Below, piece after piece: positions 5,896 through 61,910 of a stretch of 64,000 bases of DNA. The notes under the pieces were generated by a model, which saw only the letters and a list, made by a program, of their open reading frames with translations, ran no database searches and was not told the DNA's origin. The stretch is taken from positions 1 through 64,000 of IMG/VR virus record IMGVR_UViG_3300045741_000352; one strand, given 5' to 3'. Positions within the stretch are counted from its first letter, which is position 1. Each line of letters opens with the position of its first letter. The position numbers were made by a program, and so were the translations under genes. Origin of the DNA: a virus.

Positions 5896-6065
5896 CATTT
5901 GCGGTGTCTCTTTGTATATTTATGTTGTCAGACCTACCCTCCATCCGTTTGACGCTTTGCATGTGCCTCTGTAGTCGGTAGACCCACACTACCGACTACA
6001 CAAAATCCACACCAAAAAATTGAACTACTCCCACGAAGCGAAACACCACCACGCCCTAAAACTGT

Positions 6066-6161
6066 GGACAGCGCCCAACTTCTTATATACAAATTTTAGA
6101 GCTGCCTATGATTTTAGCGTTGGCAGCTCTAAAATCAAAACAGAGAAGTTGGGCACTGTCC
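6066..6161. repeat. 96-bp imperfect palindrome (nested hairpin)
   Basis: Inner stem ATTTTAGAGCTGCC (6093-6106) pairs with GGCAGCTCTAAAAT (6122-6135) across a 15-nt loop. Outer arms 6066-6083 and 6144-6161 pair with one mismatch. Confidence 0.85.
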
Positions 6162-6175
6162 CAAATGTCTGTAAG
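6117..6175. repeat. left copy of the 59-bp inverted repeat (partner 14255-14313)
   Basis: The reverse complement of 14255-14313 matches 6117-6175 at 58 of 59 positions (checked base by base). Confidence 0.9.
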
Positions 6176-6199
6176 TATTTATATCTTATGTGCTTATCT

Positions 6200-6228
6200 G
6201 TGGACAGCTTCACGTGTATACTGTCCAC
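6200..6228. promoter_or_regulatory. GTGGACAG dyad (candidate operator)
   Basis: GTGGACAG-13 nt-CTGTCCAC. The same 8-mer also occurs at 6064, 6411 and 14002, and its GTGGAC core is the unit of the 13337-13413 array. Confidence 0.4.
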
Positions 6229-6265
6229 GACTTTGTATATTTCCCTATTTTTTCTCTGTATATAT

Positions 6266-6347
6266 GGGTGAAACACCCCACGAACAACCCTTGACAAATA
6301 CCCCATATTTTTTGTAGTGTATAAATGTAGTGTGAAACACCCTAAAA
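6266..6347 (+). promoter_or_regulatory. promoter-like module A upstream of the RHH gene
   Basis: Three motifs (GGGTGAAACACCCCACG, TTTTTTGTAGTG, GTGTGAAACACCCTAAAA) recur collinearly at 14077-14160. Contains TTGACA (6291) and TATAAA (6320), but they are 23 nt apart, which is non-canonical. Confidence 0.4.
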
Positions 6348-6359
6348 CGAGGATTATTT

Positions 6360-6815
6360 ATGAAAAAAATCGAGGTTATTCTTGATGATTCTGTGCATTC
6401 TCAGCTTGTTGTGGACAGCAAAAAACAAAGGCGGTCACTCAAACAGCATGTGCTGTGGCTCCTAGAGCAACATATACAATCCTGTGCTGTACCGACTACA
6501 CAGCATGATCCCGATGTGCTAGATGAGCACATCACGTCTTTTTTCGAGACGGAGACACTCGGACTTTCAAAGAAAGACGCCCTCCAGAGCTATGACAGCT
6601 TTGTAGAAGAAAACGGCACTCACTGGCTTGTACTTGACGACTTTCTTGAATATCTGCGAAATACAGCGCACGTGCAGGCACGGCGAGATCGTGTGACGCA
6701 GCGACTTACAAAAAACGGCTGGTTTTACGTGCGACTAGGCGAGAAGGACGTGCTCTCAGGTGTGGTAGAGGACCGTGTGTATTATTGTCACGAAAATTTT
6801 GGGGTTGCGGAATGA
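6360..6815 (+). CDS. ribbon-helix-helix DNA-binding protein with a C-terminal primase-C-terminus-like segment
   Basis: N-terminus KKIEVILDDSVHSQLVVDSKKQRRSLKQHVLWLLEQH has the RHH pattern. The C-terminal LDDFLEYLRN...GW resembles the prim-pol C-terminus. Confidence 0.6.
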   Translation: MKKIEVILDDSVHSQLVVDSKKQRRSLKQHVLWLLEQHIQSCAVPTTQHDPDVLDEHITSFFETETLGLSKKDALQSYDSFVEENGTHWLVLDDFLEYLRNTAHVQARRDRVTQRLTKNGWFYVRLGEKDVLSGVVEDRVYYCHENFGVAE

Positions 6816-7636: not shown

Positions 7637-8231
7637 ATTCTCCCTGATCGTAAATACCACACCATGCGACATGCCAGTATGACACGTCGTCGGCGTTCTT
7701 GAATTTGTCGGGATACTTTGCCGCAATCAAACGACACCAACCGTCGTATAGATCACAGCAGAGTCCCAGACCGGCGCATGTGGCGATGTAGGTTTTGATG
7801 CGTGCCTCTAGCGCTGTCGCACTGACAGGCACACGTGCAAACGCTTTGGGGTCAAGGCCCAGCGTTTGTAGGTTGTGACGGTCCAAACAGCCTACAGTAC
7901 CGCATATGAGCTGCATAATAAAGCCGGCCTTGACAATACCGATGTGCGGTATATCAATCAACGCTCGCATTTTACTATGGTCTGATACATCAGGATTATG
8001 GAAAAGATCCAGGTACCTATCGGCGCTTTGTGTGACGTAAGCGATACCGTTTTTCTGAGTGCGTGTGAGGTACTTCGCGCTGTCCAGGCCAACACTATGC
8101 AAGTCTGCCAGCACAGCACCGACACGGTGGAAGTGTTGGTTTTGTGTGGCGATAACAAAAGTTACCACGTCGATAAACCCCCCGGCTGTTGTGGCATGCT
8201 GGGCTATGAGTGGTTGGTGTTCAGCGTACAT
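7611..8231 (-). CDS. hypothetical protein with a helix-hairpin-helix-like segment
   Basis: 206 aa. IDIPHIGIVKAGFIMQLICGTVGCLDRHNL resembles the HhH plus catalytic-Asp region of HhH-GPD-type enzymes. The family is not established. Confidence 0.5.
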   Translation of the reverse strand: MYAEHQPLIAQHATTAGGFIDVVTFVIATQNQHFHRVGAVLADLHSVGLDSAKYLTRTQKNGIAYVTQSADRYLDLFHNPDVSDHSKMRALIDIPHIGIVKAGFIMQLICGTVGCLDRHNLQTLGLDPKAFARVPVSATALEARIKTYIATCAGLGLCCDLYDGWCRLIAAKYPDKFKNADDVSYWHVAWCGIYDQGECDSAIYTV

Positions 8232-9966: not shown

Positions 9967-11052
9967 CTAGTCGATGTCGTCCACACTGTCCAGACCGTCA
10001 AGGAAAGCGTCTACACTGTCGGGAATACCGGCGGACGGGTAGACGTGTTCTTCTGTACCATCGGTCAGCACAAGAATCTGTTCGAGTGCCTTGGCTTTCA
10101 GCGCAGCACCAGAGCCAAGAATAGCGGATTCCGCACGGGAGGTGGCTCTGTCGTCGCCACGTGTAGCGCGAGAATGATCGACGTAGTTTGTCACCGCGTT
10201 ATACAGCGCATACGCCGTGTGCTCCCAGGGAAAAGCGTTGCCGTCATTGTGCGACCAGAGCGCGGTGATGTCGCGTTTGATATTCTCACTCTTGGTTGAT
10301 TCCCCAGGGAACAAGCTGTCCAGAATTGCCGTGTACCTCTCGCGTTTGATGATTTTACGCTGTGCAAGCGTCTCCAGCTTGGTTTGTAAATCTTGCTGCG
10401 TGGCGAGCACACCTTGCACGAGGTTGTGTGCCGCGTGCATTTTATGGTGCACGTTTTTGGTATGTTTGAACCGTAGCGTTGTGCCTGTCACGTTACCAAG
10501 GGAAAATTGTAACGTGTTCATGCATACGATCCGCGTGCCAGTAAGGTACGCTTGTGCTGCCAGGCTACCATCAAAAGAGTTGATAAACGCGAGGTAGGTA
10601 CGTGTTACGTCGCCACTGCCTAGCACGTCGATTTGCCCTACCCTGGCGCTAATAAACAGCACAGAGCCACCACGCAGAGCGCCAGCGCTGTCGTAGTGGA
10701 AACCGCTGCCTTCTATCATTGTATCGACGAAGTCAAACATATGGACAGGTTGAATGATGGCATAGCTTGCCCCTACCGTGCCGATATGCGCGCCAGTGTC
10801 GGAACGGAAAATGCCAACCTTGTCAGATTTGAAAAATTTACTACCCCATTGTTCCGCAAGTGCTGCTTGTGGGGAATCACACGGCGCGTGTGCATATAGC
10901 GCAAGGTCAAGTGCAGTCCATGGAATGACCTGTTGTATCGCGTCGCTCGCTGAGAATGCACCTTGCACAATCTGGCCCAGTCTGTGCCATGCACCTGTGT
11001 CGGCCAACAACAACTCAGCTTGGTTATTTTTGAAAGACAATTCATGTGCCAT
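9967..11052 (-). CDS. DUF932 / phage-plasmid-like protein (TIGR03299-type)
   Basis: 361 aa. GTRIVCMNTL, RFKHTKN and the AVTNYVDH region match what I recall of the DUF932 family, which is common beside radC in mobile elements. Confidence 0.7.
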   Translation of the reverse strand: MAHELSFKNNQAELLLADTGAWHRLGQIVQGAFSASDAIQQVIPWTALDLALYAHAPCDSPQAALAEQWGSKFFKSDKVGIFRSDTGAHIGTVGASYAIIQPVHMFDFVDTMIEGSGFHYDSAGALRGGSVLFISARVGQIDVLGSGDVTRTYLAFINSFDGSLAAQAYLTGTRIVCMNTLQFSLGNVTGTTLRFKHTKNVHHKMHAAHNLVQGVLATQQDLQTKLETLAQRKIIKRERYTAILDSLFPGESTKSENIKRDITALWSHNDGNAFPWEHTAYALYNAVTNYVDHSRATRGDDRATSRAESAILGSGAALKAKALEQILVLTDGTEEHVYPSAGIPDSVDAFLDGLDSVDDID

Positions 11053-11113
11053 GATGTACTGCTCCTATACGTTACTTTGTCGCGCTATGCCGCATACAGC
11101 ACACGCTGTATAC

Positions 11114-11165
11114 CCTGTTTTTTCAGGTAGTGCAGGCTTTTAGCCTGCACTCCGCACACTTACGC
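11114..11165. repeat. 52-bp intergenic repeat, copy 1
   Basis: Identical to 11391-11442. Contains the hairpin GTGCAGGC-TTTTA-GCCTGCAC. Confidence 0.9.
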
Positions 11166-11333
11166 ATGAGTACATGGACATGCCGGGCCTGTAATGCGCT
11201 CATAATGCAGACCGTTCACACAAAGCTGCACGGGGTATGCCGTTGCACGGCAATGAGCCGCAAGCGCTACCGCTTGCTGTTGTGGTAGTACCGCCAACCA
11301 TTCCTGCCGGGTGTCGTTAGTAATGACCGCGTG
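11160..11333 (-). CDS. small hypothetical protein (57 aa)
   Basis: ATG 11333 behind ATAGGAGCAAAAC. Its TAA lies inside repeat copy 1. Too short for the ORF track. Confidence 0.4.
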   Translation of the reverse strand, partial: HAVITNDTRQEWLAVLPQQQAVALAAHCRATAYPVQLCVNGLHYERITGPACPCTHA

Positions 11334-11390
11334 CATGTTTTGCTCCTATATGTTGTCGCGCTATGCCCTGACCAGTACCATACTGGTCAG

Positions 11391-11442
11391 CCTGTTTTTT
11401 CAGGTAGTGCAGGCTTTTAGCCTGCACTCCGCACACTTACGC
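11391..11442. repeat. 52-bp intergenic repeat, copy 2
   Basis: Identical to 11114-11165. The flanking TGCTCCTAT..GTCGCGCTATGCC segments are also similar. Confidence 0.9.
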
Positions 11443-11738
11443 TATTTGAGTATGGTGATATTAGATCGTCTGCCTTTTGCGTTGTACACCTGTAGGGTAC
11501 GGTATACGTGGTTGACACTTTCCCTGTACACGAGGTCAGCGCTGCGCCCATCGGGATGTACAGCACACGTGGTATCACCACGACGCACACAGGTAAACCC
11601 CAGGCTTTCGAGCCAGGCGGTAAACTCAGCATGCCGATTGTCTTCGTTACGTCTGCGCTGTGCTGCGCTGCCAGCAGGCGACCAGAAATAGACGTTAGCG
11701 GTCAAAAACGTCGGACGTGCTACTGTTGCTGTTGCCAT
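11442..11738 (-). CDS. hypothetical protein
   Basis: 98-codon ORF with ATAGGAGCAAAACATA upstream of the ATG. Its stop lies at the edge of repeat copy 2. Confidence 0.5.
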   Translation of the reverse strand: MATATVARPTFLTANVYFWSPAGSAAQRRRNEDNRHAEFTAWLESLGFTCVRRGDTTCAVHPDGRSADLVYRESVNHVYRTLQVYNAKGRRSNITILK

Positions 11739-11757
11739 TATGTTTTGCTCCTATCGG

Positions 11758-12294
11758 TTACGCTACATACTCACTACTGCGTTGCACCACATCATTTTTC
11801 GTGTGCCATGCGTCGATGTAGTCATCGACGTGATACCTGGCGCTGTTTGCCTGATCTGTCCAGTGCCACACACCGCTTGGCGATTGATAGGCGTATGTCG
11901 TCACACCCACCGCTTGCATCAGGTACACAATGTACTGTCCAAGCGACACAGGATAGGAAAAATTGTCGCATATCTTTTCAAACTTCTTTTGTATTACTTT
12001 CAGATACGGACCAAATTTGTCTATATCTTCCAGCGTAATCATATCAGAACGGTTCGATGTGAAACCGTAGCGCCAGCCATAGCTAACACTTTTTGTACTA
12101 CAGCTTGCATCGTATTGGGACGACAGGGTAAAATGACCGTAAATAGGGTCATCGTATGGCGCAGGATCAGGCTTGCTGTACACGTGATTAAACGGGCGCA
12201 GTATTGCCGTAGTATGGCCGTATTTTTCGCCATAATTCTCGTTACGGTGGTGAATGATACAGCACAGATCGTGCGACGGTTTAATGATAGCCAT
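11758..12294 (-). CDS. hypothetical protein
   Basis: 178-codon ORF with AGGAGCGTACCCC upstream. First gene of the leftward accessory unit. Confidence 0.55.
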   Translation of the reverse strand: MAIIKPSHDLCCIIHHRNENYGEKYGHTTAILRPFNHVYSKPDPAPYDDPIYGHFTLSSQYDASCSTKSVSYGWRYGFTSNRSDMITLEDIDKFGPYLKVIQKKFEKICDNFSYPVSLGQYIVYLMQAVGVTTYAYQSPSGVWHWTDQANSARYHVDDYIDAWHTKNDVVQRSSEYVA

Positions 12295-12429
12295 GGGGTA
12301 CGCTCCTAGTGTTTCGCGGTAACTCTTCGGTGTGCATATAGTGTGACCAATTGCAGGTATAGCTGCAACAAAAAAATAAGGCGTTAATTTACAAGGAGTT
12401 ATAAGGAATGAGGAGAAAGGTTATGCGTT

Positions 12430-13038
12430 ATGAGTGAAATTGTGGCGAATTCTGCGGTCATTGAACCACCCAGTGTCTTAAAAGAACTAAGCGCAAACTC
12501 CGTGAAATTCTGTGAGTATTACGCCTTAAATAACAATGCTTTACAGTCATGCATACTTGCTGGCTTTGCATCAAGTTCGGCACGAACATACGCCTATGAC
12601 ACATTGCTTAAAAATCCTAAAGTTTTGGAAGCGGTTGAATATTTCAGAGCTGTAAATGCCTCAAATTCAACGTATACACCTGCTAAAATTGTCGCGCAAT
12701 GGTCAGAAATGGCCTCATTTAACATTTTAGATTGCTGCGATGAAAATTATATACTCAAGCCGCTGAGTCAATTGGATGAAGAACAAAAACGCAGGCTTGG
12801 CATTGCGTTGACCGGATTGAAAATCACGGTAAAAAATGGCAGGCAATATGTTGAGCCGAAAATGGCGCGAGAAACCGCGTTGCAAGAGCTGGGTAAAATC
12901 CATCGCCTCTATGCCGACGATAAGCAGCAAGGGCAAGGTTTGAATCTCACGATCAATGTAGGGCAGCAAGTTGTTGTAGAACAAGAACTTAGCGAAAATA
13001 TCGGACACCTTGTCATGAAAGATGAAGAGCTGGCATAG
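12430..13038 (+). CDS. terS: terminase small subunit
   Basis: The N-terminus KFCEYYALNNNALQSCILAGFASSSARTYAYDTLLKNPKVLEAVEYF fits the Terminase_2-type HTH pattern. GAGGAGAAAGG lies upstream. Confidence 0.75.
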   Translation: MSEIVANSAVIEPPSVLKELSANSVKFCEYYALNNNALQSCILAGFASSSARTYAYDTLLKNPKVLEAVEYFRAVNASNSTYTPAKIVAQWSEMASFNILDCCDENYILKPLSQLDEEQKRRLGIALTGLKITVKNGRQYVEPKMARETALQELGKIHRLYADDKQQGQGLNLTINVGQQVVVEQELSENIGHLVMKDEELA

Positions 13039-13336
13039 TATTTGCATTCCTATATATATATAAGCATGTGGCGCATGGGCCTGCACTCTGGCTTTTCACT
13101 GGTGTGGTACCTCGCTGATCGTTGGCTTTTGCGTCACACGTGACATCCCACCAAACGCGCTACAATGCCTCTATTTTGCGTTTGCCTTTCCAGACGTGTC
13201 TCTACCCTACCTGGCCAGCCAGAATGCAATAGCGTCGAAATTATCACAGTGATAATAATGTAACCTTTTCTCGCCTCCATACTGTACACTTGAGCAGTAT
13301 ACGGGGAAAAGTGTTAGCATCTACATTGTACTATGG

Positions 13337-13413
13337 GTGGACCTAGAGTGGACCTAGAGTGGACCTAGAGTGGACCTAGAGTGGACCTAGAGTGGACCTA
13401 GAGTGGACCTAGT
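13337..13413. repeat. 7 tandem copies of the 11-bp unit GTGGACCTAGA
   Basis: Six perfect units plus a seventh ending in T. The period is about one helical turn. Confidence 0.95.
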
Positions 13414-13463
13414 GCCCATGCGTGCAGTATGTAGTCCAATGCGATACCTTATATGAGGTACGA

Positions 13464-13650
13464 TCCTACTTGATACAGTCTGTAGCTGTGTACTAATACT
13501 AATTGGACGCTACTAGATTGGATTAGTCCATGAGTACAGTCGCTATCGTATCGGTCGCGTCCTACTTGATACAGTCTATGGCTGTGTACTAATACTAATT
13601 GGACACTACTAGGTTGGCTTAGTCTGTATCTATGATCGCTATTTTTTTGG
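13464..13650. repeat. two tandem units of about 96 bp
   Basis: TCCTACTTGATACAGTCT..GTGTACTAATACTAATTGGAC..CTACTAG..TTGG recurs at 13464 and 13560 with a few substitutions. Confidence 0.85.
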
Positions 13651-13856
13651 CCGCGTTCTGTTCAGCATGGGCCATGGGTATATCCTAGTATGAGTTGATT
13701 GGTACAGGTTGGGGTATGGGGGCTTTGGAAAAGGGACCGGCTGCAAGAGTGGTGTATGCATCGACCTCCCGCGCACCCCGTGTGTTCCTCTGTATTTCTT
13801 CGCACCCTGGATATTCCACAGTATTTGCACGCCCCCAGCATTTCTCACCAGGTGAA

Positions 13857-13914
13857 GCACAGGAGGGGTACCGTACCGAGAGCACAGGAGGGGTACCGTA
13901 CCGAGAGCACAGGA
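13857..13914. repeat. 25-bp tandem repeat, 2.3 copies
   Basis: GCACAGGAGGGGTACCGTACCGAGA appears twice, followed by a partial third copy. Confidence 0.9.
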
Positions 13915-14076
13915 TGAACTACCCAGATTTTTGGGTGTGCGTAGAAAGTTTCTCTATACCATAGTAGTATATATTTTCATGTCGAAATGTGAATATATGT
14001 TGTGGACAGTTGACCAACTTAAATGGTGGGCAGCCGTCCACAAACACACAAAAAAGATAAAAATCACAGAATATTC

Positions 14077-14160
14077 GGGTGAAACACCCCACGTTTATAC
14101 ACTAAGAAAATTCGGGGGTGTTTTTTGTAGTGGTATTATGATGGGTAAAACATCCTAAAT
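14077..14160 (+). promoter_or_regulatory. promoter-like module B with an extended -10
   Basis: Same three motifs, order and spacing as 6266-6347. TGgTATTAT at 14131-14139 is a good extended -10 element reading rightward. Confidence 0.45.
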
Positions 14161-14254
14161 TTTTGTAAATTTTATGCTAAAAACACGGTTTTTTTTAGAA
14201 GTTTGCACGTCAAGTGTTTTCACTGTCCCGCCCTTATATAAGAAAAATCAATAT

Positions 14255-14313
14255 CTTACAGACATTTGGGACAGTGCCCAACTTCTCTGTTTTGATTTTG
14301 GAGCTGCCAACGC
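14255..14313. repeat. right copy of the 59-bp inverted repeat (partner 6117-6175)
   Basis: 58 of 59 positions identical to the reverse complement of 6117-6175. Confidence 0.9.
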
Positions 14314-14390
14314 TTTTTTCTGTGTCACCTATTTTTGCTCTCATATAGCGCGATGCGCGTACACACGCGCAGTATACCATGTTCAGACTT

Positions 14391-14470
14391 CCCCATCTGC
14401 CGTCCTGTGCTATTCCCATTCCCCATCTGCCGTCCTGTGCTATTCCCATTCCCCATCTGCCGTCCTGTGC
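14391..14470. repeat. 30-bp tandem repeat, 2.7 copies
   Basis: CCCCATCTGCCGTCCTGTGCTATTCCCATT appears twice, plus a 20-nt partial copy that ends exactly at the -35 hexamer. Confidence 0.95.
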
Positions 14471-14499
14471 TTGACAGTGGGTAGTAAAAATCGTATATT
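14471..14499 (+). promoter_or_regulatory. near-consensus sigma70-type promoter for the terL/late operon
   Basis: TTGACA, a 17-nt spacer, then TATATT, about 95 nt upstream of the terL ATG. Confidence 0.6.
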
Positions 14500-14593
14500 T
14501 TCTGCTAACATACGCAAAGGCCATACGTATGTACTTTTCCAGCCCTCGTTGAGAGTGGGCACGCTCCCTCACTCTCGACTTACGCGAGAAAAT

Positions 14594-16090
14594 ATGCCGC
14601 AACTTACACTTGAATACATCGCATCACCCACCATCGCAAAATTCATACGCTCGGATAAGTTTTATGCGTTGTGTTGTGGCGCTAGAGGGTCCGGCAAGTC
14701 CACGGCGGGGCTGATGCGAACGATTATTCGAGCGAATCAACTCCCACCACAATACCACCCGCTTCGTTGGGCCGTTGTACGCGATACCCGCAAAAACATT
14801 GGCCTTACTGTCGCACGCACCATACGCAAATGGTGCCCCGAACCTTATGCAAAATGGCGAGGTAAACCAGAAGAACCTGAATCCTGTGTGATCTACATCA
14901 AAGGCAAACCTCTGGTCCATTTTGATTTTTTTGGTGTGAACTCTCCAGGGGATCATGACCGCTTTCAGTCCTACGAAGCATCTGGTGGTATATGGCTCGA
15001 AGAACCCTGCCCCTTAGCCACCAACACCGAATTTGTGGCATCTGGTATCGCTGAATCTGTGCTGGCTTCGGCGCAAACATCAGTACGTGGTGGGCCAAAT
15101 CCCTCTATCCAGATTACCATGAACCCGCCTTCCGCTGATCACTGGACAGCACAACTTTTTCACTTACCAGGCTTTGAAGCTGCTGGTGATGATGAAATGG
15201 AAATGCCACCTGAAGCCATAGAGCAACGAAAGAGAATACGCGAATCCGCCGATGTCTTCATGGTGCCCCCCTCCGAATGTGCTGCTGAGAAAGAAACACC
15301 GGGGTATACCGAACGTAACCGACAGATACTTCTGGCGACAGGTCGAACGGACCTCCTTGCGCGTCTCGTGGATGGTCGTATTGGCTACGCACAGGTTGGG
15401 GAACGTGTCACACCTGAATTTTCGTCGATGCACATTGTCAATGGGCTCACCATTATCCCACGTGTGCCTATTATTCTCGCATTTGACTTTGGACTGAATG
15501 CCACGTGTATTGCAGCGCAAATTACCCCACAGGGATACTTACACATTCTGCGAGCCTGGACACGTGAGAACGCGGGAATGAAGCAATTACTTACCACCGA
15601 TGTGCAACCATGGCTTGCACAGCAGCCTGTGGAATCCTGGTGGTATTGTGGCGGACCTGAAGCACGTGAACGTGAGCAATCGGACTCTGAAGAAACTGCG
15701 CTACGCATGATTGTGAACACACTTGGTAATGCGTCGTATCGTGCCGGACCTGTCTCGTGGTCCGCACGTCGTGATGCACTGAGAGACGCGCTGACACGCA
15801 CGCCTGGCGGACTCACGTGGATTCGCGTTTCTCAACAAGGTGCCGCACTGCTTATACGGGCACTGGACGGTGGTTGGCATTACCCAACAGATAGTATGGG
15901 GCATATTAGAAATAACGGCCAACCAGATAAACGCAGCAAATGGGATCACTTAGGGGATGCTTTCTCGCACCTCTGCGCTGTGCTACTCAAGAAAACGGAC
16001 AATTCCTCCAGGTCTGTGCAAAAGCAGCGTCCCTCGCTTGTGCGTCATAACCATACGGTATATACTGGTTCAACACGAACAGGAGTGTAA
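14594..16090 (+). CDS. terL: terminase large subunit
   Basis: Walker A GARGSGKST, Walker B-like GGIWLEEP, and a nuclease-domain AFDFGLN. Start taken at MPQLTL; the track ORF from 14174 runs through non-coding repeats. Confidence 0.85.
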   Translation: MPQLTLEYIASPTIAKFIRSDKFYALCCGARGSGKSTAGLMRTIIRANQLPPQYHPLRWAVVRDTRKNIGLTVARTIRKWCPEPYAKWRGKPEEPESCVIYIKGKPLVHFDFFGVNSPGDHDRFQSYEASGGIWLEEPCPLATNTEFVASGIAESVLASAQTSVRGGPNPSIQITMNPPSADHWTAQLFHLPGFEAAGDDEMEMPPEAIEQRKRIRESADVFMVPPSECAAEKETPGYTERNRQILLATGRTDLLARLVDGRIGYAQVGERVTPEFSSMHIVNGLTIIPRVPIILAFDFGLNATCIAAQITPQGYLHILRAWTRENAGMKQLLTTDVQPWLAQQPVESWWYCGGPEAREREQSDSEETALRMIVNTLGNASYRAGPVSWSARRDALRDALTRTPGGLTWIRVSQQGAALLIRALDGGWHYPTDSMGHIRNNGQPDKRSKWDHLGDAFSHLCAVLLKKTDNSSRSVQKQRPSLVRHNHTVYTGSTRTGV

Positions 16091-54406: not shown

Positions 54407-54580
54407 TTAATCTTCGTGCTGATCTTTCTGTCCCTGCTCATATCCTCGCTCCCAACCTACTTCGTATGCCACTTGTAAATGATCGACCATGCTTTCAAGT
54501 AGCTCACGATCCAAGCGACCTACACGAGAAAACAATTGACCGATCCACCGCTGAAAATGTCTCTCTTCTGTGCTGTCCAT
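54407..54580 (-). CDS. small hypothetical protein
   Basis: TAATG coupling to the RNR stop. Begins MDSTEERHFQRW. Confidence 0.4.
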   Translation of the reverse strand: MDSTEERHFQRWIGQLFSRVGRLDRELLESMVDHLQVAYEVGWERGYEQGQKDQHED

Positions 54581-57261
54581 TAGCTGCACCCCGCACTCAT
54601 ACCGCATGTATCGCACACGAAACAGTTACCAGTACGACGAAGCATTAAAACACCGCAGTCAGGGCACAGTGGTGCATCGTGTGATTGCAGTGCCGGACCA
54701 GCTTCATTGTCGTCCGTGCTCGGCTGCACTACATCGCCGTCAAATTGGATAGAAAGCCAGCGAAAAATATAGTCAATCACACTACTTGCCATAGGTAGCT
54801 TTGGATTACCTGTAAAACCTGATGGCTCAAACCGAGTGTGACGCAGCTTGTCAGTAAGCACAGACAGGGGGACGCCGTATTGAAGCAGCAGTGACGTGAG
54901 TACACCAACGGTGTCCATCAACCCCCGCACTGTGCTACCTTCTTTTGACATGGTGATGAACAGCTCGCCGGGCCTGTTTGTATCTGGGTACATACCAACA
55001 TTCAAATATCCCTCATGATTACCCACCTTAAATTTGTGGTTGTGTGCTGGACGATCCACAGGAAGTCGTACACGCGGAGGTTGTGCAGGTGTAATTTCTT
55101 CGATGTTAAACATAGCTTTTGCGAGATTTTCACTCGCTTCTTGGATAGGGTTCACTTTGGGTAAGTACCAGTTCGTATCTGGCTCCGCCCATCTGATTTT
55201 ACCAGATTTCAATGTAGCGATATCCGAAAACTGTTCTGGTGGAATTTGTGCAATGGGTGCAGCAGATTGCTGCACAGTGACGGGTTGTACGGTTTTACAA
55301 CCATCACGATACACGGCCACAGACTTAAGCCCAAGCTGCCACGCTATAATGAACGCTTGTTCAATGTCTTCAACAGTGGACTCATTTGGCATGTTGATAG
55401 TCTTTGACACAGCGCCACTGAGTAAGGGTTGCACAATGGCTACCATCGCTATGTGATCACGCCAGGAGATTGTGTTGTCTCCAAGTGCTGTGGCAAACAC
55501 CGCCATGTGCGTCGGGTCCAGTAAGCCACTCTCAACACTGTGCTGTAATGAGCCCGTGTTTTCAAGTTCAACCTGTATTTTGTTACGTGTGTGTTGATCG
55601 TAACCAAGTGCGGTGAGTCCGGCCATAAAAGACTTATTGATCATTTTGACAGAGCCGCCGCCTACAAGTTTTTTATCCTGAATAAGCCCCAGGCACGGCT
55701 CAATGCCGGTCGTTTCACAGTCCATCAGAAAACTGATCGTGCCCGTTGGCGCAAGCAGTGTGACCTGGCAGTTACGAAAACCGTGCTCTTTGCCCATCTG
55801 TAGGGCCTTGCGCCATATATCAGCCGCGTAAGGTCGTCCGTTTTTTTTGTGCTTTTCAATGACTGCCAACATTTCGTCACCGTTCTCAGGATAACCAGAG
55901 AAAGGCCCTTTCTTCTTTGCAATCTTAGCCGATTGTAGATATGCCTCACCTGTCATGAGTGAGGTAATGTCACACGCCGTCAAACGTCCAGCCGCGCTGC
56001 TATACGGCAAGCCTTTCGCCATGAGCAATGCGCCCAAATTTGCATAGCCTAGACCAAGAGAACGAAAGTCGTGCGAGTTCTTTGCAATGCTGTCCGTTGG
56101 GTAGCTCGAACGATCTACGATAATGTCCATCGCTGTAATGAGCACATCAACGGTGTGCTTAAATGCCTCTGCATCGAAACTGCCGTCCGGTCGTAAAAAT
56201 GGTAAAAGGTTGATTGAGGCCAGATTGCAGGCTTCATCAGGTGGTCGCATAAATTCGGAACATGGATTTGTCGATACTATTCTTCCTTGTCCTGGTGTAG
56301 TGTGCCAACTATTGATTGTATCGACAAAAAATAACCCAGGATCACCACACATCCATGCGGCAGAGGCTATTTTATGCAACAAAAGACCTTTCTCACCGTG
56401 CGGTCTTGGCCAAGATGCAAGTTGCATGAAGTCATCGGTAACACTTACACTGTTGTTTGCATTTTGAAATGGGATGTACTCCTGTACTGCACTTTCCATG
56501 CTTCCATCATATCCCGCGTCAATTAACGCATGAGCCATTTCTTCCGCTCTGACTTTACACCAGATAAACTCTTCAATATCTGGGTGATCGTGGTCCATAA
56601 TAACCATCTTCGCGGCACGTCGTGTTGTGCCGCCCGACTTGATGACACCCGCATTGGTGTCTGCACCGCGCATAAAAGATACCGGGCCGCTCGCTTTACC
56701 CCCACTTGTAATTGCCGCATTTTTTGGACGTAATTTTGAAATGTTGACACCAGCACCGGAACCATTCTTGAAAATCATCCCTTCGGTGCGGTACCACTCA
56801 AGAATGGACTCCATGTTATCTTCAACGTCCAAAATGAAACAAGCACTACATTGTGGTTCTGTTTGTACTCCTACGTTGAACCACACAGGCGAATTAAAAG
56901 CTGCGAGCTGGTGAAGTAAGATAAAGCACAACTCTTGATTGAAAATGATGGCATTCTTGTCGTCAAAATAACTATCAAGTAAACCCCACGTCGCTATTGT
57001 ATTAACTACACGTTGAATCATTTGCCGTACCGAGGTCTCTTGTACACCGTCCACCACACGAAAATACTTACTGGCAACGATGTTCGACGCTCGAACAGAC
57101 CAGGAAATTGGGAACTCTGCGTCTCGCATTTCAAAAGCAATACTGCCGTCATCGCGTTCAATTTTGACGTGGCGTTTTTCCCAAATTACTAAATCAAATG
57201 GGTTTACACTTTCTTTTGTGAAGTATCCTGGTATTTCTAGCAGCGACATCATGCACTCCAT
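54580..57261 (-). CDS. nrdJ: class II (adenosylcobalamin-dependent) ribonucleotide reductase
   Basis: Active-site TNPCSEF, an N-terminal WSVRASNIVASKYFR region, and a C-terminal zinc ribbon CPDCG...CDTCG. Single chain, with no nrdB nearby. Confidence 0.85.
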   Translation of the reverse strand: MECMMSLLEIPGYFTKESVNPFDLVIWEKRHVKIERDDGSIAFEMRDAEFPISWSVRASNIVASKYFRVVDGVQETSVRQMIQRVVNTIATWGLLDSYFDDKNAIIFNQELCFILLHQLAAFNSPVWFNVGVQTEPQCSACFILDVEDNMESILEWYRTEGMIFKNGSGAGVNISKLRPKNAAITSGGKASGPVSFMRGADTNAGVIKSGGTTRRAAKMVIMDHDHPDIEEFIWCKVRAEEMAHALIDAGYDGSMESAVQEYIPFQNANNSVSVTDDFMQLASWPRPHGEKGLLLHKIASAAWMCGDPGLFFVDTINSWHTTPGQGRIVSTNPCSEFMRPPDEACNLASINLLPFLRPDGSFDAEAFKHTVDVLITAMDIIVDRSSYPTDSIAKNSHDFRSLGLGYANLGALLMAKGLPYSSAAGRLTACDITSLMTGEAYLQSAKIAKKKGPFSGYPENGDEMLAVIEKHKKNGRPYAADIWRKALQMGKEHGFRNCQVTLLAPTGTISFLMDCETTGIEPCLGLIQDKKLVGGGSVKMINKSFMAGLTALGYDQHTRNKIQVELENTGSLQHSVESGLLDPTHMAVFATALGDNTISWRDHIAMVAIVQPLLSGAVSKTINMPNESTVEDIEQAFIIAWQLGLKSVAVYRDGCKTVQPVTVQQSAAPIAQIPPEQFSDIATLKSGKIRWAEPDTNWYLPKVNPIQEASENLAKAMFNIEEITPAQPPRVRLPVDRPAHNHKFKVGNHEGYLNVGMYPDTNRPGELFITMSKEGSTVRGLMDTVGVLTSLLLQYGVPLSVLTDKLRHTRFEPSGFTGNPKLPMASSVIDYIFRWLSIQFDGDVVQPSTDDNEAGPALQSHDAPLCPDCGVLMLRRTGNCFVCDTCGMSAGCS

Positions 57262-57515
57262 TTCGCAAGTGTATCAACGGTAACTTTTTCTACAGCGTTG
57301 AGTCTTTGTGCGATTTGCCCAAGTGGAAAATGGTCTTTATGCCTACTCCAAAAACCAGCACAGCACACATCATCTGAGTGGTGACAAATGCGGTGACCTG
57401 TGAACTCGCCTGCCATACGTGGGTCGGCAACTTGATTTTCCAGCGCTTGTACATCCAGTGGACTTTCTTTTCTGTAGATACAAGTTGCACACATGGATTT
57501 TTGCACGCGGAACAT
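57249..57515 (-). CDS. Cys-rich hypothetical protein
   Basis: 88 codons with TGATG coupling. Contains CATC ... CHH ... CC. Confidence 0.5.
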   Translation of the reverse strand: MFRVQKSMCATCIYRKESPLDVQALENQVADPRMAGEFTGHRICHHSDDVCCAGFWSRHKDHFPLGQIAQRLNAVEKVTVDTLAKWSA

Positions 57516-57766
57516 CAGTTTTTTCCATTAAAGCCTGGTATGTACACCAATGGCGGCTTCTGTACTTCGCTGCGAGACTTCTCTAAAGCCTCCATCGCCG
57601 CATTCAAAGCCATCTCCTGTGCTGTTATCAACAACCTGAGAACAGCAAACCAACCACCTCCTATATTAGCGTGCTGCATTTGCACTGTGGGTGTGTCGCT
57701 GCCAGGTTGAGGCGGCAGCACATCAATAACAAGTCTCGGATGATCAACTTCATTTGGTTGGCTCAT
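57515..57766 (-). CDS. hypothetical protein
   Basis: ATG 57766 behind AAAGAGG. The longer track ORF would overlap the upstream gene. Confidence 0.45.
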   Translation of the reverse strand: MSQPNEVDHPRLVIDVLPPQPGSDTPTVQMQHANIGGGWFAVLRLLITAQEMALNAAMEALEKSRSEVQKPPLVYIPGFNGKN

Positions 57767-58337
57767 AGCACACCTCTTTCGATTCCAGACGCTCAATTTC
57801 CATTTGTGTACAGCAAAACCAGGCAACTTTGGCGAGATCGTCTTCAGGCTCTCCGTTCCTACATTCACCGACATACTCACCTGTAGTAAGCAAGTGAATG
57901 TAAATTTTTAGGTGTTTTAGTGCGTGATTAGCCCTTTCAATTTGAAAAGGTGTATTGTCTGCGCCCAGACGCCAGTTGTCACGCCCGTACTTCACTTCAC
58001 CTTCTCTGAACACCGCGCCAATACGCTTTTCCGCCTCAAGAGGTATCTGCGTCAGGTCGTATGGTTCCACATCGGTGCGAGCTGCGGCGTCTTTGGTTTT
58101 TACAGTAGGCGTCAAAGGAGTGTTCTCGCTCAAACCACAGTGTACACACTGGCGTGTACCGTTGCTGTAATCAATGAACTCGTGACCTTTGCACAAATCG
58201 TGACCTTTGCGTAACTCGTGTGCAATTTCTTGGGGAGTTTTCATAGATGGTGACTCCAAAATTTTGCGGATTTTATTACATTCTGGGCAAGTGTCAGTTC
58301 TGTAATACCCGTGATATTTACACGTATACATCGGCAT
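57750..58337 (-). CDS. zinc-ribbon plus MazG-like dNTP pyrophosphohydrolase domain protein
   Basis: The C-terminal half (IPLEAEKRIGAVFREGEVKYGRDNWR ... ERANHALKHL ... EDDLAKVAWF) fits the phage dATP/dGTP diphosphohydrolase (all-alpha NTP-PPase) pattern. Confidence 0.5.
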   Translation of the reverse strand: MPMYTCKYHGYYRTDTCPECNKIRKILESPSMKTPQEIAHELRKGHDLCKGHEFIDYSNGTRQCVHCGLSENTPLTPTVKTKDAAARTDVEPYDLTQIPLEAEKRIGAVFREGEVKYGRDNWRLGADNTPFQIERANHALKHLKIYIHLLTTGEYVGECRNGEPEDDLAKVAWFCCTQMEIERLESKEVCYEPTK

Positions 58338-58879
58338 CAATTATACGCCTTCGTAGGCCCTTGCTGGCCCTTATATCTTCCTACATAAGACTGCACAGTT
58401 CTCTCTGTCAGTCGATCATAAACGAGCTGCACAATACGCTCCCCCTGTGCTATACGAACGGGTAGATGTGTTTCGAGTTCGAGTGTAATCTGTCCCTCAA
58501 ATCCTGGATCGATGAAACCCGCCATTTTATGCCCGAGCCCTTTTCGTGCAGGGGATGAACGCATTTGCAAAAATGCACAGTGTGTGCTGGGTACAATGAT
58601 GTTCTCAATCGTAGAGCACAGGTAAAAATACCCAGGTCTGAAGGTATATTTCTCACCGTCAAACAACCTGACTTCGCGCCAGTCTACAAATTGATCTTCT
58701 CTCGTGCACCAAAACAAGAACCGTAAATGACACCACAAACGACGCCACCGCGAAGGTCTCTTTGCGAATTTAATAATGTTGTGCAGTCGCAAATCAACGG
58801 ACGCCGGACCCACATTGTTACGCACATAACCAAACTCTGCTGCATGTTTTGCCAACCATTGATGCGGCTCAACCGCCAT
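58337..58879 (-). CDS. dcd: dCTP deaminase family protein
   Basis: ASVDLRL ... RSSPARKGL ... GFIDPGFEGQITLEL ... GERIVQL are Dcd/dUTPase-fold motifs. TAATG coupling to thyX. Confidence 0.8.
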   Translation of the reverse strand: MAVEPHQWLAKHAAEFGYVRNNVGPASVDLRLHNIIKFAKRPSRWRRLWCHLRFLFWCTREDQFVDWREVRLFDGEKYTFRPGYFYLCSTIENIIVPSTHCAFLQMRSSPARKGLGHKMAGFIDPGFEGQITLELETHLPVRIAQGERIVQLVYDRLTERTVQSYVGRYKGQQGPTKAYN

Positions 58880-59733
58880 TACGCACGCTCCTGAAAAAGA
58901 TTCGGCCAACGTTCAATGCACTTATTTTTCCACAAAGATGCCAAACGTTGAAACTCCAGGTCTGCATATTCGTTGGTACGTTCAAGGAAAAGTTTTTTAA
59001 GTGCTTCCGGGTTGGTTGTCCACACCAGAGATGTCATCGCACTGTGCGGCAAGAAAGACGAAGCAGCTTCGTAGATACGTTTACGGTTGAGACCTTTGGG
59101 GTCTTTTCCTTCGTGCATCTCACGATAGTTATGCTCTTGTTGGTGTATGTACGCACGATAGTTGTTGTAAGCCGCTAACATACTGTCTTGGAAAAAACTG
59201 GTATCAGCTTCACTGTGGTATACCCATGGGTGTACCACGAACCAACCAGGGTGCTCGACATAGCGTGTCGATTCTTGTGACGGCGAACCTTCCTCATCAC
59301 GATCAGCGCCAACGTAGTGTCGGATAAGTTCGTGTGTCAATCGACGACTGATACCAGAAAGAAAAAAGGTCATTTTGGGGTGATACATGAGAGATTTGTG
59401 AGGTATTTGACCGAGTTGTGTATTAGCGATGTATCCAGCGTTGTCTGGTGTACCCGCTTTAGCGCCAAATGAATAATAGCATAATCGTCCACTCAACTCG
59501 ACAAGAAGCTCATTGTCAGTGATCTGTCGTGTGCGCTCCCAACCTTCATGGGGAAAGAGCATTGCTTTACACCACGCATCACCTTCAAAATCAGAAAACG
59601 CCTTGGCATAGCCAGACGGGTAACACTCAGGATGTGCCTCTCTTATACTTTGAATTACCTGTTGCAGTGCCCCAGGAATGAAGCGTTGTTCGCTCAAAGG
59701 TATGACTGTAGGCTCCGTGACAATATGTATCAC
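58879..59733 (-). CDS. thyX: flavin-dependent thymidylate synthase
   Basis: LIRHYVG...SPSQESTRY corresponds to the ThyX RHR...SxxSxRY motif. Confidence 0.8.
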   Translation of the reverse strand: MIHIVTEPTVIPLSEQRFIPGALQQVIQSIREAHPECYPSGYAKAFSDFEGDAWCKAMLFPHEGWERTRQITDNELLVELSGRLCYYSFGAKAGTPDNAGYIANTQLGQIPHKSLMYHPKMTFFLSGISRRLTHELIRHYVGADRDEEGSPSQESTRYVEHPGWFVVHPWVYHSEADTSFFQDSMLAAYNNYRAYIHQQEHNYREMHEGKDPKGLNRKRIYEAASSFLPHSAMTSLVWTTNPEALKKLFLERTNEYADLEFQRLASLWKNKCIERWPNLFQERA

Positions 59734-59912
59734 CCTGTGCTCCTATTCAAGTGGTGGTATGTCAGGATTGAGGCGTAACAGCTCAGTGGCAAGCTCAGAG
59801 GCATAAGAGCGAGAATGATCATAATAAGATTTGACATCTTTATAATTGGAGAGCTTTTGTGCAGTCGCACGTAGCTGCTTAATTTTTCCCAACAATCACA
59901 CGCATTCTTCAC
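59730..59912 (-). CDS. small membrane protein
   Basis: GTGA and ATGA overlaps at its two ends. Hydrophobic segment LIMIILALMPLSLPL. Confidence 0.4.
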   Translation of the reverse strand: MKNACDCWEKLSSYVRLHKSSPIIKMSNLIMIILALMPLSLPLSCYASILTYHHLNRSTG

Positions 59913-60205
59913 TCGTTTCCAATGGGTACCTCACTACTCCCCTGTGCCATTTCGAGCTGTTGTTTCAGCACACGGAGCGCGAGTCGGATCACCTCTGTGC
60001 GCCACCGCAAACCTGTAAGCCTGTGCAATTCGTCAATCAGCTCTAAATCATCTTTATAGAGATAGAGACCGATTTGCTTCTGTCCCGAAATTGTCGATGG
60101 TATATATTTCCTCGTCACGTGTTCTTCCAAACGCTGCCGGGTAGAGTTGTTTAATTGTCTCACCAACCTCAAATGCGTATCTTGTGATTGTATCTTCCTT
60201 TGCAT
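59909..60205 (-). CDS. ribbon-helix-helix protein
   Basis: KQIGLYLYKDDLELIDELHRLTGLRWRTEVIRLALRVL has the RHH pattern. The true start may be GTG at 60118. Confidence 0.5.
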   Translation of the reverse strand: MQRKIQSQDTHLRLVRQLNNSTRQRLEEHVTRKYIPSTISGQKQIGLYLYKDDLELIDELHRLTGLRWRTEVIRLALRVLKQQLEMAQGSSEVPIGNE

Positions 60206-60678: not shown

Positions 60679-60984
60679 TTAACCGGAGCCGTCGCCGTCG
60701 CCGTCGCCGGAGCCGTAGCCGTAGCCGTAGCCGTAGCCGTCGCCGTCGCCGTCGCCGTCGCCGGAGCCGTAGCCGTAGCCGGAGCCGTAGCCGTAGCCGT
60801 AGCCGGAGCCGTAGCCGGAGCCGTCGCCGGAGCCGTAGCCGTCGCCGGAGCCGTAGCCGTCACCGTAGCCGTTACCGTAGCCGTTACCGTTACCGGAGCC
60901 GTAGCCGTCTCCGGAACCGTAGCCGTAGCCGTAGCCGTAGCCGTCACCGTAGCCGAAGCCGGAGCCGTCGTCTATTCTTTCCAT
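60679..60984 (-). CDS. (Gly-X)n repeat protein, copy 4 (101 aa)
   Basis: ATGGAAAGAATAGAC start and TAA stop. Begins MERIDDGSGFGYGDGYGYGYG. Shares its leader and upstream spacer with copies 2 and 3. Confidence 0.6.
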   Translation of the reverse strand: MERIDDGSGFGYGDGYGYGYGYGSGDGYGSGNGNGYGNGYGDGYGSGDGYGSGDGSGYGSGYGYGYGSGYGYGSGDGDGDGDGYGYGYGYGSGDGDGDGSG

Positions 60985-61003
60985 GTGTATATTTTCACTT
61001 ATT

Positions 61004-61285
61004 TTAGCCGTAGCCGTAGCCGTCACCGTTACCGTTACCGTTACCGTAGCCGTAGCCGTAGCCGGAGCCGTCACCGTTACCGTAGCCGTCGCCGTCGCCG
61101 GAGCCGTAGCCGTAGCCGTCGCCGGAGCCGTAGCCGTAGCCGTAGCCGTAGCCGTAGCCGTAGCCGGAGCCGGAGCCGGAGCCGGAGCCGTCGCCGTCGC
61201 CGTCGCCGTAGCCGTCGCCGGAGTCGTCGCCGTAGCCGTAGCCGTCGCCGGAGCCGTAGCCGTAGCCGTCGCCTATTCTTTCCAT
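61004..61285 (-). CDS. (Gly-X)n repeat protein, copy 3 (93 aa)
   Basis: Begins MERIGDGYGYGSGDGYGYG. Its TAA lies 19 nt before the copy 4 ATG. Confidence 0.6.
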   Translation of the reverse strand: MERIGDGYGYGSGDGYGYGDDSGDGYGDGDGDGSGSGSGSGYGYGYGYGYGYGSGDGYGYGSGDGDGYGNGDGSGYGYGYGNGNGNGDGYGYG

Positions 61286-61304
61286 GTGTATATCTTCGCT
61301 TATT

Positions 61305-61550
61305 TTAGCCGGAGCCGTAGCCGTAGCCGTAGCCGTCGCCGTCGCCGTCGCCGTCGCCGTAGCCAGAGCCGTAGCCGTCGCCGGAGCCGTAGCCGTCACC
61401 GGAGCCGTAGCCGTCACCGGAGCCGTAGCCGTCGCCGTCGCCGGAGCCGTAGCCGGAGCCGTAGCCGGAGCCGTCGCCGTCACCGTAGCCGTAGCCGGAG
61501 CCGGAGCCGGAGCCGTCACCGTAGCCGGAGCCGTTGTCTATTCTTTCCAT
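61305..61550 (-). CDS. (Gly-X)n repeat protein, copy 2 (81 aa)
   Basis: Begins MERIDNGSGYGDGSGSGSGYG. Conserved spacer TAAAATAAGCGAAGATATACAC lies before copy 3. Confidence 0.6.
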   Translation of the reverse strand: MERIDNGSGYGDGSGSGSGYGYGDGDGSGYGSGYGSGDGDGYGSGDGYGSGDGYGSGDGYGSGYGDGDGDGDGYGYGYGSG

Positions 61551-61569
61551 GTGAATATCTTTACTTATG

Positions 61570-61910
<341 letters not shown>

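Follow-up and report, generated by a model that had tools for sequence, protein, structure and literature searches.

The Window and Its Phage

The stretch analyzed here, referred to as the window, comprises positions 1 to 64,000 of the IMG/VR virus record IMGVR_UViG_3300045741_000352, a contig of 70,489 nt, and our subject is the non-coding interval that separates the small (terS) and large (terL) terminase genes within it. The phage is lytic and podovirus-like. Its structural module runs on the + strand from terS (12430) to ~52.7 kb and includes the portal, internal virion proteins and a lytic tail protein, and both flanks of this module hold mostly − strand genes for replication and nucleotide metabolism (SNF2 helicase, primase, DUF932, RadC, ribonucleotide reductase, ThyX, a dCTP-deaminase-like protein and DNA polymerase). 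We found that the interval carries a chain of short motifs, termed V-W-X-Y-Z, which is kept upstream of terL in ~10 lineages of related phages. Comparison with these relatives indicates that the interval contains cis-acting DNA under selection, because the chain is conserved and single-copy and because a terL promoter and a hairpin in the 5′ untranslated region (5′-UTR) recur among them.

The phage lineage is known solely from metagenomes. Among 50,697 phage records there is no DNA-level match to the window and no match to the terS-to-terL stretch or the portal protein, and TerL matches just nine records at 22–25% identity, all belonging to other groups. Representative genomes from 185,579 species of bacteria and archaea likewise yielded no relative, and the 51 TerL homologues with E ≤ 1e-30 are metagenome-derived throughout. 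Our comparison set consists of ~20 distinct loci fetched around TerL homologues (numbered with the prefix L below), whose gene set is podovirus-like with a portal of the SU10 type (PF23899).

The Interval between terS and terL

The interval and its two flanking genes are as follows.

12430–13038, + strand: terS, small terminase gene (PF03592, E = 1e-10; phrog_51, E = 1e-17)
13039–14593: non-coding terS–terL interval of 1555 nt, without a gene-like open reading frame (ORF)
14594–16090, + strand: terL, large terminase gene and first gene of the structural module (phrog_2, E = 3e-16)

A profile of the TerS N-terminal domain, made from seven TerS proteins of the lineage, matches the DNA-binding domain of the SF6 small terminase (PDB entries 2CMP, 4ZC3 and 3ZQP; E = 6e-5 to 8e-5), and by this similarity TerS is assigned to the SPP1/SF6 (G1P, PF03592) type. 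The PDB and Pfam matches of TerL were uninformative as to the packaging type. Two TerL homologues of 854 aa (P0022 and P0043) carry intein/homing-endonuclease domains (PF05204, PF05203, PF14528), and TerL is thus an intein target in this lineage.

The original prediction, which was made from the sequence of the window alone, had described the interval as non-coding, and this held on closer analysis. ORFs of at least 35 aa within it score −0.32 to +0.11 per codon in codon usage, which is the range of shadow ORFs (mean −0.11, maximum 0.18; 22 trusted genes score 0.10–0.28), no Shine-Dalgarno sequence stands at any of them, and tblastx detected no coding similarity between the interval and the relatives, including the cargo genes of the latter. 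A hidden gene was rejected on these grounds. An alternative TerL start at the in-frame ATG at 14174 (+140 aa) was also rejected; it would run through a 30-bp array and the promoter described below, and the TerL homologues in the profile (150–640 aa) begin at or near the ATG at 14594. The interval contains no tRNA or known RNA, and Rfam 15 families gave no match to it at threshold and none with an E-value below 0.5. A CRISPR-like array was rejected as well, since all four repeat families are arranged head-to-tail in tandem without spacers.

The distance between terS and terL had been taken as an anomaly, which it is not. The two genes are split by 0.97–4.5 kb in each of the seven relatives whose upstream sequence reaches terS (end of terS to start of terL: L081, 966 nt; L009, 1474; L008, 2176; L019, 2199; L021, 2776; L006, 2974; L007, 4490), often with cargo between them, and L001 and L023 have no terS within 2–3 kb upstream of terL. 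The usual layout in relatives is terS, a few leftward small genes, a non-coding region, optional rightward cargo and terL, where the cargo includes Bro-N, AntA, HNH, an integrase-like gene and small ORFs. The terS–terL gap is thus the normal cargo slot of the lineage, and the window represents the case where no gene is left between the two. Further accessory or mobile genes lie around terL in relatives (L081, 8451–9617; L076, 1998–2918; L021, 3601–4197 and 11229–12707); those seen near terL are an IS605 OrfB/Cas12f-like TnpB, an ART-PolyVal protein directly after terL, a short tyrosine-recombinase-like gene and a MobA/MobL relaxase-like gene. Some of the relatives may not be strictly lytic.

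A Conserved Motif Chain Upstream of terL

Two blocks of ~70 nt each carry most of the chain.

13234–13305, + strand: block V, with its core CGAAATTATCACAGTGATAATAATGTAACCTTTT at 13236–13269 and TTGAGCAGTATAC at 13290–13302
13707–13782, + strand: block W-X-Y, with W GGGGTATGGGGGC at 13711–13723, X AAGGGACCG at 13731–13739 and Y GCATCGACCTCCCGCGCACCCC at 13758–13779

Both were recovered with nhmmer profiles that were built from relatives alone, the window being excluded to avoid circularity. In the 128 kb of strands searched, the V profile (four lineages: L006, L022, L076 and L078) gave one window hit, at 13234–13305 (E = 5.4e-14), and the W-X-Y profile (nine lineages) likewise one, at 13707–13782 (E = 5e-7). 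The V core contains a 17-bp palindrome, ATTATCAC-A-GTGATAAT (13240–13256), which occurs once in the 64 kb; the lineage form of V is CGAAATTATCACAGTGATAATAWTGTAACCTTTT with the 17-bp palindrome, followed ~22 nt on by TGAGCAGT. V is 94% identical to its counterpart in L006 over 33 nt, though the TerL proteins are 64% identical, and V is also found in L022, L076 and L078. In the lineage form, W is a G-rich GGTATGGGGG-type stretch, X reads AAGGGACCG(TTA), Y is a C-rich block (GCATCGTCTCCCCCCGCCCGC in L007 and L076) and Z is AAAAGTACCCTACC. The exact 9-mer X lies upstream of terL and on its strand in L001/L003, L006, L007, L009/L011, L018/L021, L022, L023 and L081, with a variant, TAGGGACCG, in L076.

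All motifs of the chain are non-coding, lie on the terL strand and follow the same order in ~10 lineages, and the chain is kept across relatives whose TerL and TerS are 54–73% and 36–50% identical to those of the window. V and W-X-Y show stronger conservation than the protein genes on either side. In the window V, X and Z each occur once, and each is essentially confined to one locus in every relative. The chain is located 200–1900 nt upstream of terL in all cases, and this placement holds where + strand genes lie upstream (L021) or where cargo precedes terL (L006, L007, L008). Its internal spacing is elastic: V lies ~110 nt from X in L076, in which the whole chain from V to the terL ATG takes up ~320 nt, and 490 nt from it in the window, while the X–Z distance is 70–73 nt in four relatives, 89 in L018/L021, ~129 in L081 and 137 in the window.

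The chain is a DNA-level element rather than a coding segment, a described RNA, a conserved RNA fold or a DnaA-box origin, given that it lacks a coding signal, an Rfam match and a consensus RNA structure (RNAalifold placed 0 pairs in W–Z over 10 lineages); folding of W–Y and V against shuffles was no better than chance (z = +0.7 and −0.3). Exact-pattern scans of IMG/VR for V and X returned chance matches only, without extended similarity.

Tandem Arrays around the Chain

Four repeat families lie between and beside the conserved blocks. The following extents are given with the results of Tandem Repeats Finder (TRF).

13337–13412: 11-bp array of GTGGACCTAGA, 6.9 copies (TRF score 152, 100% matches)
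13464–13655 (TRF 13464–13642): 96-bp direct repeat, 1.9 copies (two copies of 81–84% identity)
13856–13914: 25-bp array, 2.4 copies (TRF, 100% matches)
14389–14478 (TRF 14389–14471): 30-bp array, 2.8 copies (TRF, 100% matches), whose last partial unit reaches into the −35 box of the terL promoter

Array density in the interval is far above background: of the ten arrays scoring at least 50 in the window, four fall in the interval, which makes up 2.4% of the sequence, and the other six, all with a period divisible by 3, lie mostly in coding DNA. Three of the four can be considered young because their copies are perfect. Copies of the 11-bp unit supply seven of the eight GTGGAC motifs of the interval, a motif found elsewhere in the window at 0.27 per kb.

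These arrays had been seen as a likely signal in themselves, but period and sequence differ in every relative (23 bp × 9, 20 bp × 2 and 62 bp × 2.4 in L001; 19 bp × at least 3 in L004; 59 bp × 2 in L005; 5-, 10- and 20-bp palindromic arrays in L007; 8 bp × 10 in L009), the 11-bp unit was not found in relatives and no array unit is common to the window and any of them. Arrays are thus a property of the place and not of the sequence, and the conserved signal lies between them or is copied by them. The proposal of a cis-acting hub accordingly stands for the conserved chain and the promoter, but not for the repeats.

Some of the copying does involve the chain. The 25-bp unit carries GGGGTACCGTACC, a variant of motif Z (AAAAGTACCCTACC), and the 96-bp copies each carry GTGTACTAATACTA, which by eye resembles the GTGTACTAGTA-type (GTGTACTA-type) sequence upstream of W in L007, L008 and L009. 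Units containing Z were duplicated independently in L001 (62 bp × 2.4), L005 (59 bp × 2) and L022 (~95 bp × 2), so that over four lineages the lengths of Z units are 25, 59, 62 and ~95 bp; such repeated amplification is what might be expected of a binding site that tolerates or gains from extra copies. Ten contigs begin 170–750 nt upstream of terL, four of them inside an array (L003, L004, L005, L011). Since arrays break assemblies, they probably vary within populations, and variable tandem arrays explain the frequent assembly breaks just upstream of terL in this lineage. Genes or ORFs with 15-bp-period repeats were also seen on the − strand near terS or the non-coding region of relatives (L006, 3066–3665; L001, 1–240; L009, 5452–6066); the one in L006 reads as pentapeptide repeats, and the window has no counterpart at that position.

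The terL Promoter and Leader

Three further elements of the interval relate to transcription.

14471–14499, + strand: predicted promoter of terL and the late operon, TTGACA-17-TATATT (11/12 matches), 95 nt before terL
14535–14592, + strand: 5′-UTR stem-loop of terL, with a 12-bp core stem (14548–14559 / 14568–14579)
13966–13993, − strand: leftward sigma-70-like promoter candidate, TTCACA-16-TATACT (10/12 matches), a consensus match only

Both promoter-like elements noticed originally were found again, and the terL-proximal one is conserved, but the number of such sites is not above chance (nine in 11000–15000 versus 7.1 ± 2.9 expected), and what speaks for the terL-proximal site is its conservation in relatives. 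A TTGACA-16/18-TAnnnT site lies 71–135 nt upstream of terL in L004, L005, L006, L015 and L016, 305 nt upstream in L007 and ahead of the inserted cargo genes in L019/L020, and similar sites were seen by eye in L074, L076 and L077; L001, L009, L022 and L081 are without a recognisable TTGACA promoter downstream of Z. The leader stem-loop has a minimum free energy of −29.6 kcal/mol (z = −2.85), and hairpins with stems of similar or greater length were seen by eye between promoter and ATG in L005 (17-bp stem) and L006. Taken together, 14471–14499 is the best-supported functional element of the interval, a predicted sigma-70 promoter starting the late transcript, and of the possible roles listed earlier (packaging initiation site, terminal repeat or concatemer junction, replication origin, late-gene control) the sequence directly supports that of a late promoter alone. 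Promoter and leader hairpin would start terL and the ~38 kb of structural genes behind it.

Does the whole region then serve transcription alone? In such a switch V, X and Y would be operators or activator sites, Z and/or the TTGACA site the late promoter, and the leftward candidate promoter would serve the early side, the region timing the late operon without any role in packaging. We consider this somewhat unlikely, although several observations suit it well: the non-coding region is where leftward and rightward gene blocks diverge in most relatives, the terL-proximal sigma-70 promoter recurs in many of them, and the 17-bp palindrome of V carries back-to-back TGnGATAAT-like extended −10 elements. 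Z (TACCCT, in line with TAnnnT) stands 65–270 nt before terL in relatives without other recognisable promoter, several of them GC-rich; the X–Z spacing is a tight 70–73 nt in four lineages, and the window adds a dyad and promoter cassette in common with gene 6360 (see below). On the other hand, V is intact in the window where no leftward gene remains between terS and V, the chain of L021 lies between + strand genes away from the divergence point, and the motifs are single-copy, which sits badly with the several early and late promoters that the phage must possess. A scan of 43 ORFs with Pfam, PHROGs and NCBIfam revealed neither a phage sigma factor or RNA polymerase nor a clear regulator. A late promoter of the phiEco32 type in V was tried and rejected, because the likeness of V to the motif tAATGTATAtA (PMC4281155) is partial and found once only and no sigma factor occurs among those ORFs.

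A Window-Specific Cassette and Its Partner at 6.1 kb

Between the 25-bp and 30-bp arrays lies a set of elements that the interval shares with a second locus of the window.

14002–14041: dyad of GTGGACAG (14002–14009) and GTCCAC (14036–14041), with a counterpart dyad at 6200–6228
14064–14159, + strand: copy of the promoter/operator segment of gene 6360 (6253–6346), without the gene behind it
14255–14314, + strand: 60-nt element, an inverted copy of 6116–6175 (98% complementary)
6064–6346: partner region downstream of the primase gene, which has the 60-nt element, dyad and promoter segment in common with 14002–14314

The four arrays, inverted repeat, dyad and promoter-like sites of the original prediction are all present, save that the inverted repeat measures 60 nt rather than 59 bp. 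Five of the six GTGGACAG motifs in the window are in 6064–6418 or at 14002–14041. The segment 14002–14159 is collinear with 6200–6346, just upstream of gene 6360, and both show the same order of dyad, palindrome GGGTGAAACACCC, T-run, extended −10 and second palindrome; in the interval these parts are GGGTGAAACACCC at 14077–14089, an extended −10 TGgTATTAT read by eye at 14131–14139 and the palindrome GGGTAAAACATCC at 14143–14155. Direct repeats between 14064–14159 and 6253–6346 are 83% and 74% identical at a constant offset of 7811–7813, and blastn aligned 135 nt at 67%. The 60-nt element, which follows the collinear segment in the interval and precedes it, inverted, at 6.1 kb, consists of a hairpin, TTGGGACAGTGCCCAA, and a T-rich tail and was flagged as terminator-like; its motif GGACAGYGCCCAACTTCT occurs three times versus 0.10 expected, and its fold gave z = −4.7 for the 6.1 kb copy and z = −1.1 (not significant) for the one in the interval. 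The ~260 nt at 14002–14314 are a rearranged copy of the regulatory region 6064–6346 and lie outside the lineage-wide core. Relatives are without the 6.1 kb region, and in L008 the next gene directly follows the primase gene. The cassette lies in the cargo slot of relatives and represents either a leftover or an additional regulatory input to terL.

For gene 6360 neither Pfam nor NCBIfam gave a family match. A pseudogene of it behind the copied promoter was rejected, as no protein-level similarity extends beyond the non-coding elements, and so was a ribbon-helix-helix (RHH) regulator for GTGGAC, for which there is, apart from gene 6360 without match, a lone weak RHH_1 match at 59909–60205 (E = 0.0017, below cutoff). 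The intergenic region after the primase gene (5896–6359) holds a terminator hairpin and four GTGGACAG motifs, and an imperfect palindrome of ~100 nt at 6064–6165 is formed by two copies of the GGACAGYGCCCAACTTCT element.

The cassette and arrays invite the thought that, beyond the terL promoter, the interval has no dedicated function and is simply a hypervariable cargo slot that was emptied and then filled by repeats and a stray cassette. Relatives do carry unrelated cargo there (Bro-N, AntA, HNH, integrase-like, small ORFs), three of the four arrays are 100% perfect and young, the arrays share no unit with relatives, and 14002–14314 is a window-specific rearranged duplicate with no gene behind it. 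This account may well hold for the arrays and the duplicated cassette; it leaves unexplained why V and W-X-Y are ordered and oriented in ~10 lineages, and as an account of the core it does not hold. For the interval as a whole we regard it as decidedly unlikely.

A replication origin, also named in the original prediction, is less probable still. Iteron-like arrays, palindromes and an AT-rich stretch would here be bound by the phage primase/helicase, with the 6.1 kb partner beside the primase gene as a second cis site, as in P4 ori/crr. The motif GTGGAC(AG) is indeed concentrated at 6064–6418, just downstream of the primase gene, and in the interval, where its copies include the helically phased 11-bp × 7 array, but the GTGGAC motifs and the 6.1 kb partner are phage-specific, and L008 lacks an intergenic stretch behind its primase gene. 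The non-coding regions of relatives hold long inverted repeats, and a low-GC segment (0.29–0.34) lies at 14050–14250; against these stand the lack of a DnaA box (TTWTNCACA) in the interval, replication genes at least 7 kb away, and a conserved chain that tracks terL and not the replication genes. The cumulative GC-skew minimum near 11–12 kb, a check that had been suggested for an origin, is uninformative, since in the four relatives tested skew follows gene orientation (+ strand terS is positive, the minus-strand genes to its left are not) and reports the coding strand. We therefore rate an origin as very unlikely.

Most improbable of all, in our estimate, is a non-coding RNA encoded by the conserved blocks or the arrays, be it a structured leader or a small RNA terminating in the 60-nt terminator-like element. 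That element has kept 98% identity between two copies that have otherwise diverged. It holds a hairpin and a U-rich tail, and both copies would be transcribed in the same sense from adjacent promoter-like sites; the Rfam, RNAalifold and folding results given above for W–Z, W–Y, V and the copy in the interval all speak against it.

A Possible Packaging Site Fused to the Late Promoter

We regard the interval as a non-coding control region that the lineage has conserved and that heads the structural and packaging operon. Our preferred reading, which falls a little short of probable, is that it represents a terminase recognition and first-cut region, pac or end-forming, fused to the late promoter. 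Terminase would recognize and first cut the replicated phage DNA at the V–Z chain, which within this reading would rather probably be a pac-type site for headful packaging and, less likely though by no means negligibly, a junction generating fixed ends. Of the two terminase proteins, TerL, the more conserved, would be the one acting at the invariant motifs, and the faster-evolving TerS ring of the SPP1/SF6 type would bind the repeated DNA around them. We attribute the span of 1.55 kb rather than ~0.3 kb to recent replication slippage, which multiplied four segments, one copying chain motif Z and another a looser shared motif, and to the ~260 nt second regulatory cassette copied into the slot where relatives carry cargo genes.

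What favours a one-per-genome terminase site is that the element is single-copy, fixed in orientation, better conserved than the neighbouring proteins and tracks terL; the chain follows terL even where the divergence point of the gene blocks lies elsewhere (L021). That V, X and Z are unique is easier to reconcile with a site used once per genome than with a promoter or operator present in several copies. Moreover, TerS is more diverged than TerL at the same loci (36–50% versus 54–73% identity to the window), a pattern that matches the variable arrays around an invariant core. In one relative, represented by three contigs of ~69 kb, terL lies at ~25.3 kb, ~51.9 kb and ~0.4 kb, the pattern expected if the assembly is circular or permuted. 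The layout, which resembles that of SU10/phiEco32 and of tf/LUZ24-type podoviruses, hints at the fixed-end version.

Several points weigh against a packaging site. Known pac and cos sites are usually found in or upstream of terS, not downstream of it, and the candidate site here is downstream. The elastic spacing of the chain (X–Z, V–X) would hardly be tolerated by a tight cos-type nucleoprotein site. Contig ends near the region are scattered and mostly inside arrays; they were considered as physical ends and rejected, since they are spread over array interiors, the X–Y gap, V and the sequence upstream of it, as expected of assembly breaks. Z (TACCCT, which fits TAnnnT) could be a promoter −10 and the chain an activator platform. 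Finally, the isolated DNA-binding domain of SF6 TerS shows little preference for the box repeats in vitro (PMC4737164), so that repeats as TerS sites are a weak assumption even in the model system.

A further reading, which we consider unlikely, is that V-W-X-Y-Z is a previously undescribed packaging signal between the terminase genes with the arrays as its specificity determinants. If so, terS and terL would come to lie at opposite ends of the packaged or first-cut chromosome, a co-evolving TerS ring would read the arrays while TerL cuts at the invariant core, and the arrays would set packaging specificity between co-infecting relatives. In any case, the two conserved blocks of ~70 nt each provide a concrete and short target for the start of packaging and the switching on of structural genes.

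Other Features of the Window

A nucleotide-metabolism cluster on the − strand (54580–59733) contains ribonucleotide reductase, a PF18909 protein (the N-terminal domain of dATP/dGTP diphosphohydrolases), the dCTP-deaminase-like protein and ThyX, a combination which hints at a modified or biased nucleotide pool. A tRNA-Gln gene (anticodon TTG; 62610–62685, − strand) adjoins the DNA polymerase gene and is probably a phage-borne tRNA rather than an attachment site, because no integrase was seen. Between the replication genes and this tRNA lies a 1.2 kb array (60683–61907) of ~205 copies of a 6-bp CCGTAG-like unit (78% matches) with a GC content of 66% versus ~47% for the phage; long ORFs occupy several of its frames, on the two strands alike, and one of them reads (AV)n and then (RS)n. 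A second repeat-rich stretch at 11054–11760, amid small − strand genes, includes a perfect 52-nt direct repeat with hairpins (11114–11165 and 11391–11442), and a near-identical translation-start context, AGGAGCAnnACAT on the − strand, recurs at four gene starts (8230, 11054, 11335 and 11740). Gene pairs of equal length at 22–28 kb were considered as paralogues and found not to be.

Comparison with Known Systems

Phased short repeats, palindromes and an AT-rich segment are common to the interval and iteron origins (lambda ori, P4 ori/crr, plasmid iterons), as is a second locus, here next to the primase gene, that carries motifs of the first. Unlike them, the interval has no DnaA boxes and does not lie next to an initiator gene, and its shared motifs are not conserved in relatives; an iteron/DnaA-type origin was rejected given the missing DnaA box, a skew that follows genes and the distance to the replication genes.

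With lambda cos (cosQ-cosN-cosB) the chain has in common a single-copy site near the terminase genes and a symmetric V followed by repeated elements, and the GC-rich block Y is in the style of lambda-type cohesive-end sequences. It differs in its TerS, which is not of the Nu1 kind, in its place downstream of terS, in internal spacings whose variation amounts to hundreds of bases and in being read straight through by many assemblies. A lambda-type cos, which would have a Nu1/gpA terminase and lie immediately upstream of terS, was rejected for the chain on the first two of these grounds.

Podoviruses with short terminal repeats (T7; phiEco32/SU10; LUZ24/tf) offer a parallel in layout. Podovirus-like genes with an SU10-type portal in relatives, and early/replication versus structural genes that diverge from one non-coding region on a circular map, are common to both, and the layout of these phages, with opposed units back to back and host-type promoters nearby, is found in the window and in relatives. 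In T7, arrays of short repeats and strong host promoters lie just inside the 160-bp terminal repeat. SU10 has terL and the portal as coding sequences 5–6 beside a 193-bp repeat with an internal short direct repeat of variable length (PMC4281155), and in tf, where the repeat measures 186 bp, two transcription units converge and the putative terminase core site is palindromic (PMC3517423). The phage described here differs from this group in a TerL without detectable affinity to theirs and in that no phage RNA polymerase or sigma factor was found; a terminal repeat would be invisible in a collapsed assembly.

The pac region of SPP1/SF6 (pacL-pacC-pacR, with boxA/B/C direct repeats) offers a parallel in the parts themselves, as the small terminase is of the same type (PF03592) and the interval, too, combines promoters with several direct-repeat sets in front of a terminase gene. 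In SPP1 and SF6 three direct-repeat sets are combined with the operon promoters, one set is not common to both phages, and some repeats differ between the related phages whereas the cleavage-site box is conserved (PMC4737164). The SPP1 site, however, spans the promoters and the start of terS, whereas the chain is placed between terS and terL; the present arrays are longer and in tandem, and there is no sequence similarity to the SPP1/SF6 site. If the packaging reading is true, the SPP1-type organization of pac would be extended to a site downstream of terS. Among phage packaging and late-control regions, a known type of element, the interval would be unusual in its position and in its degree of inflation.

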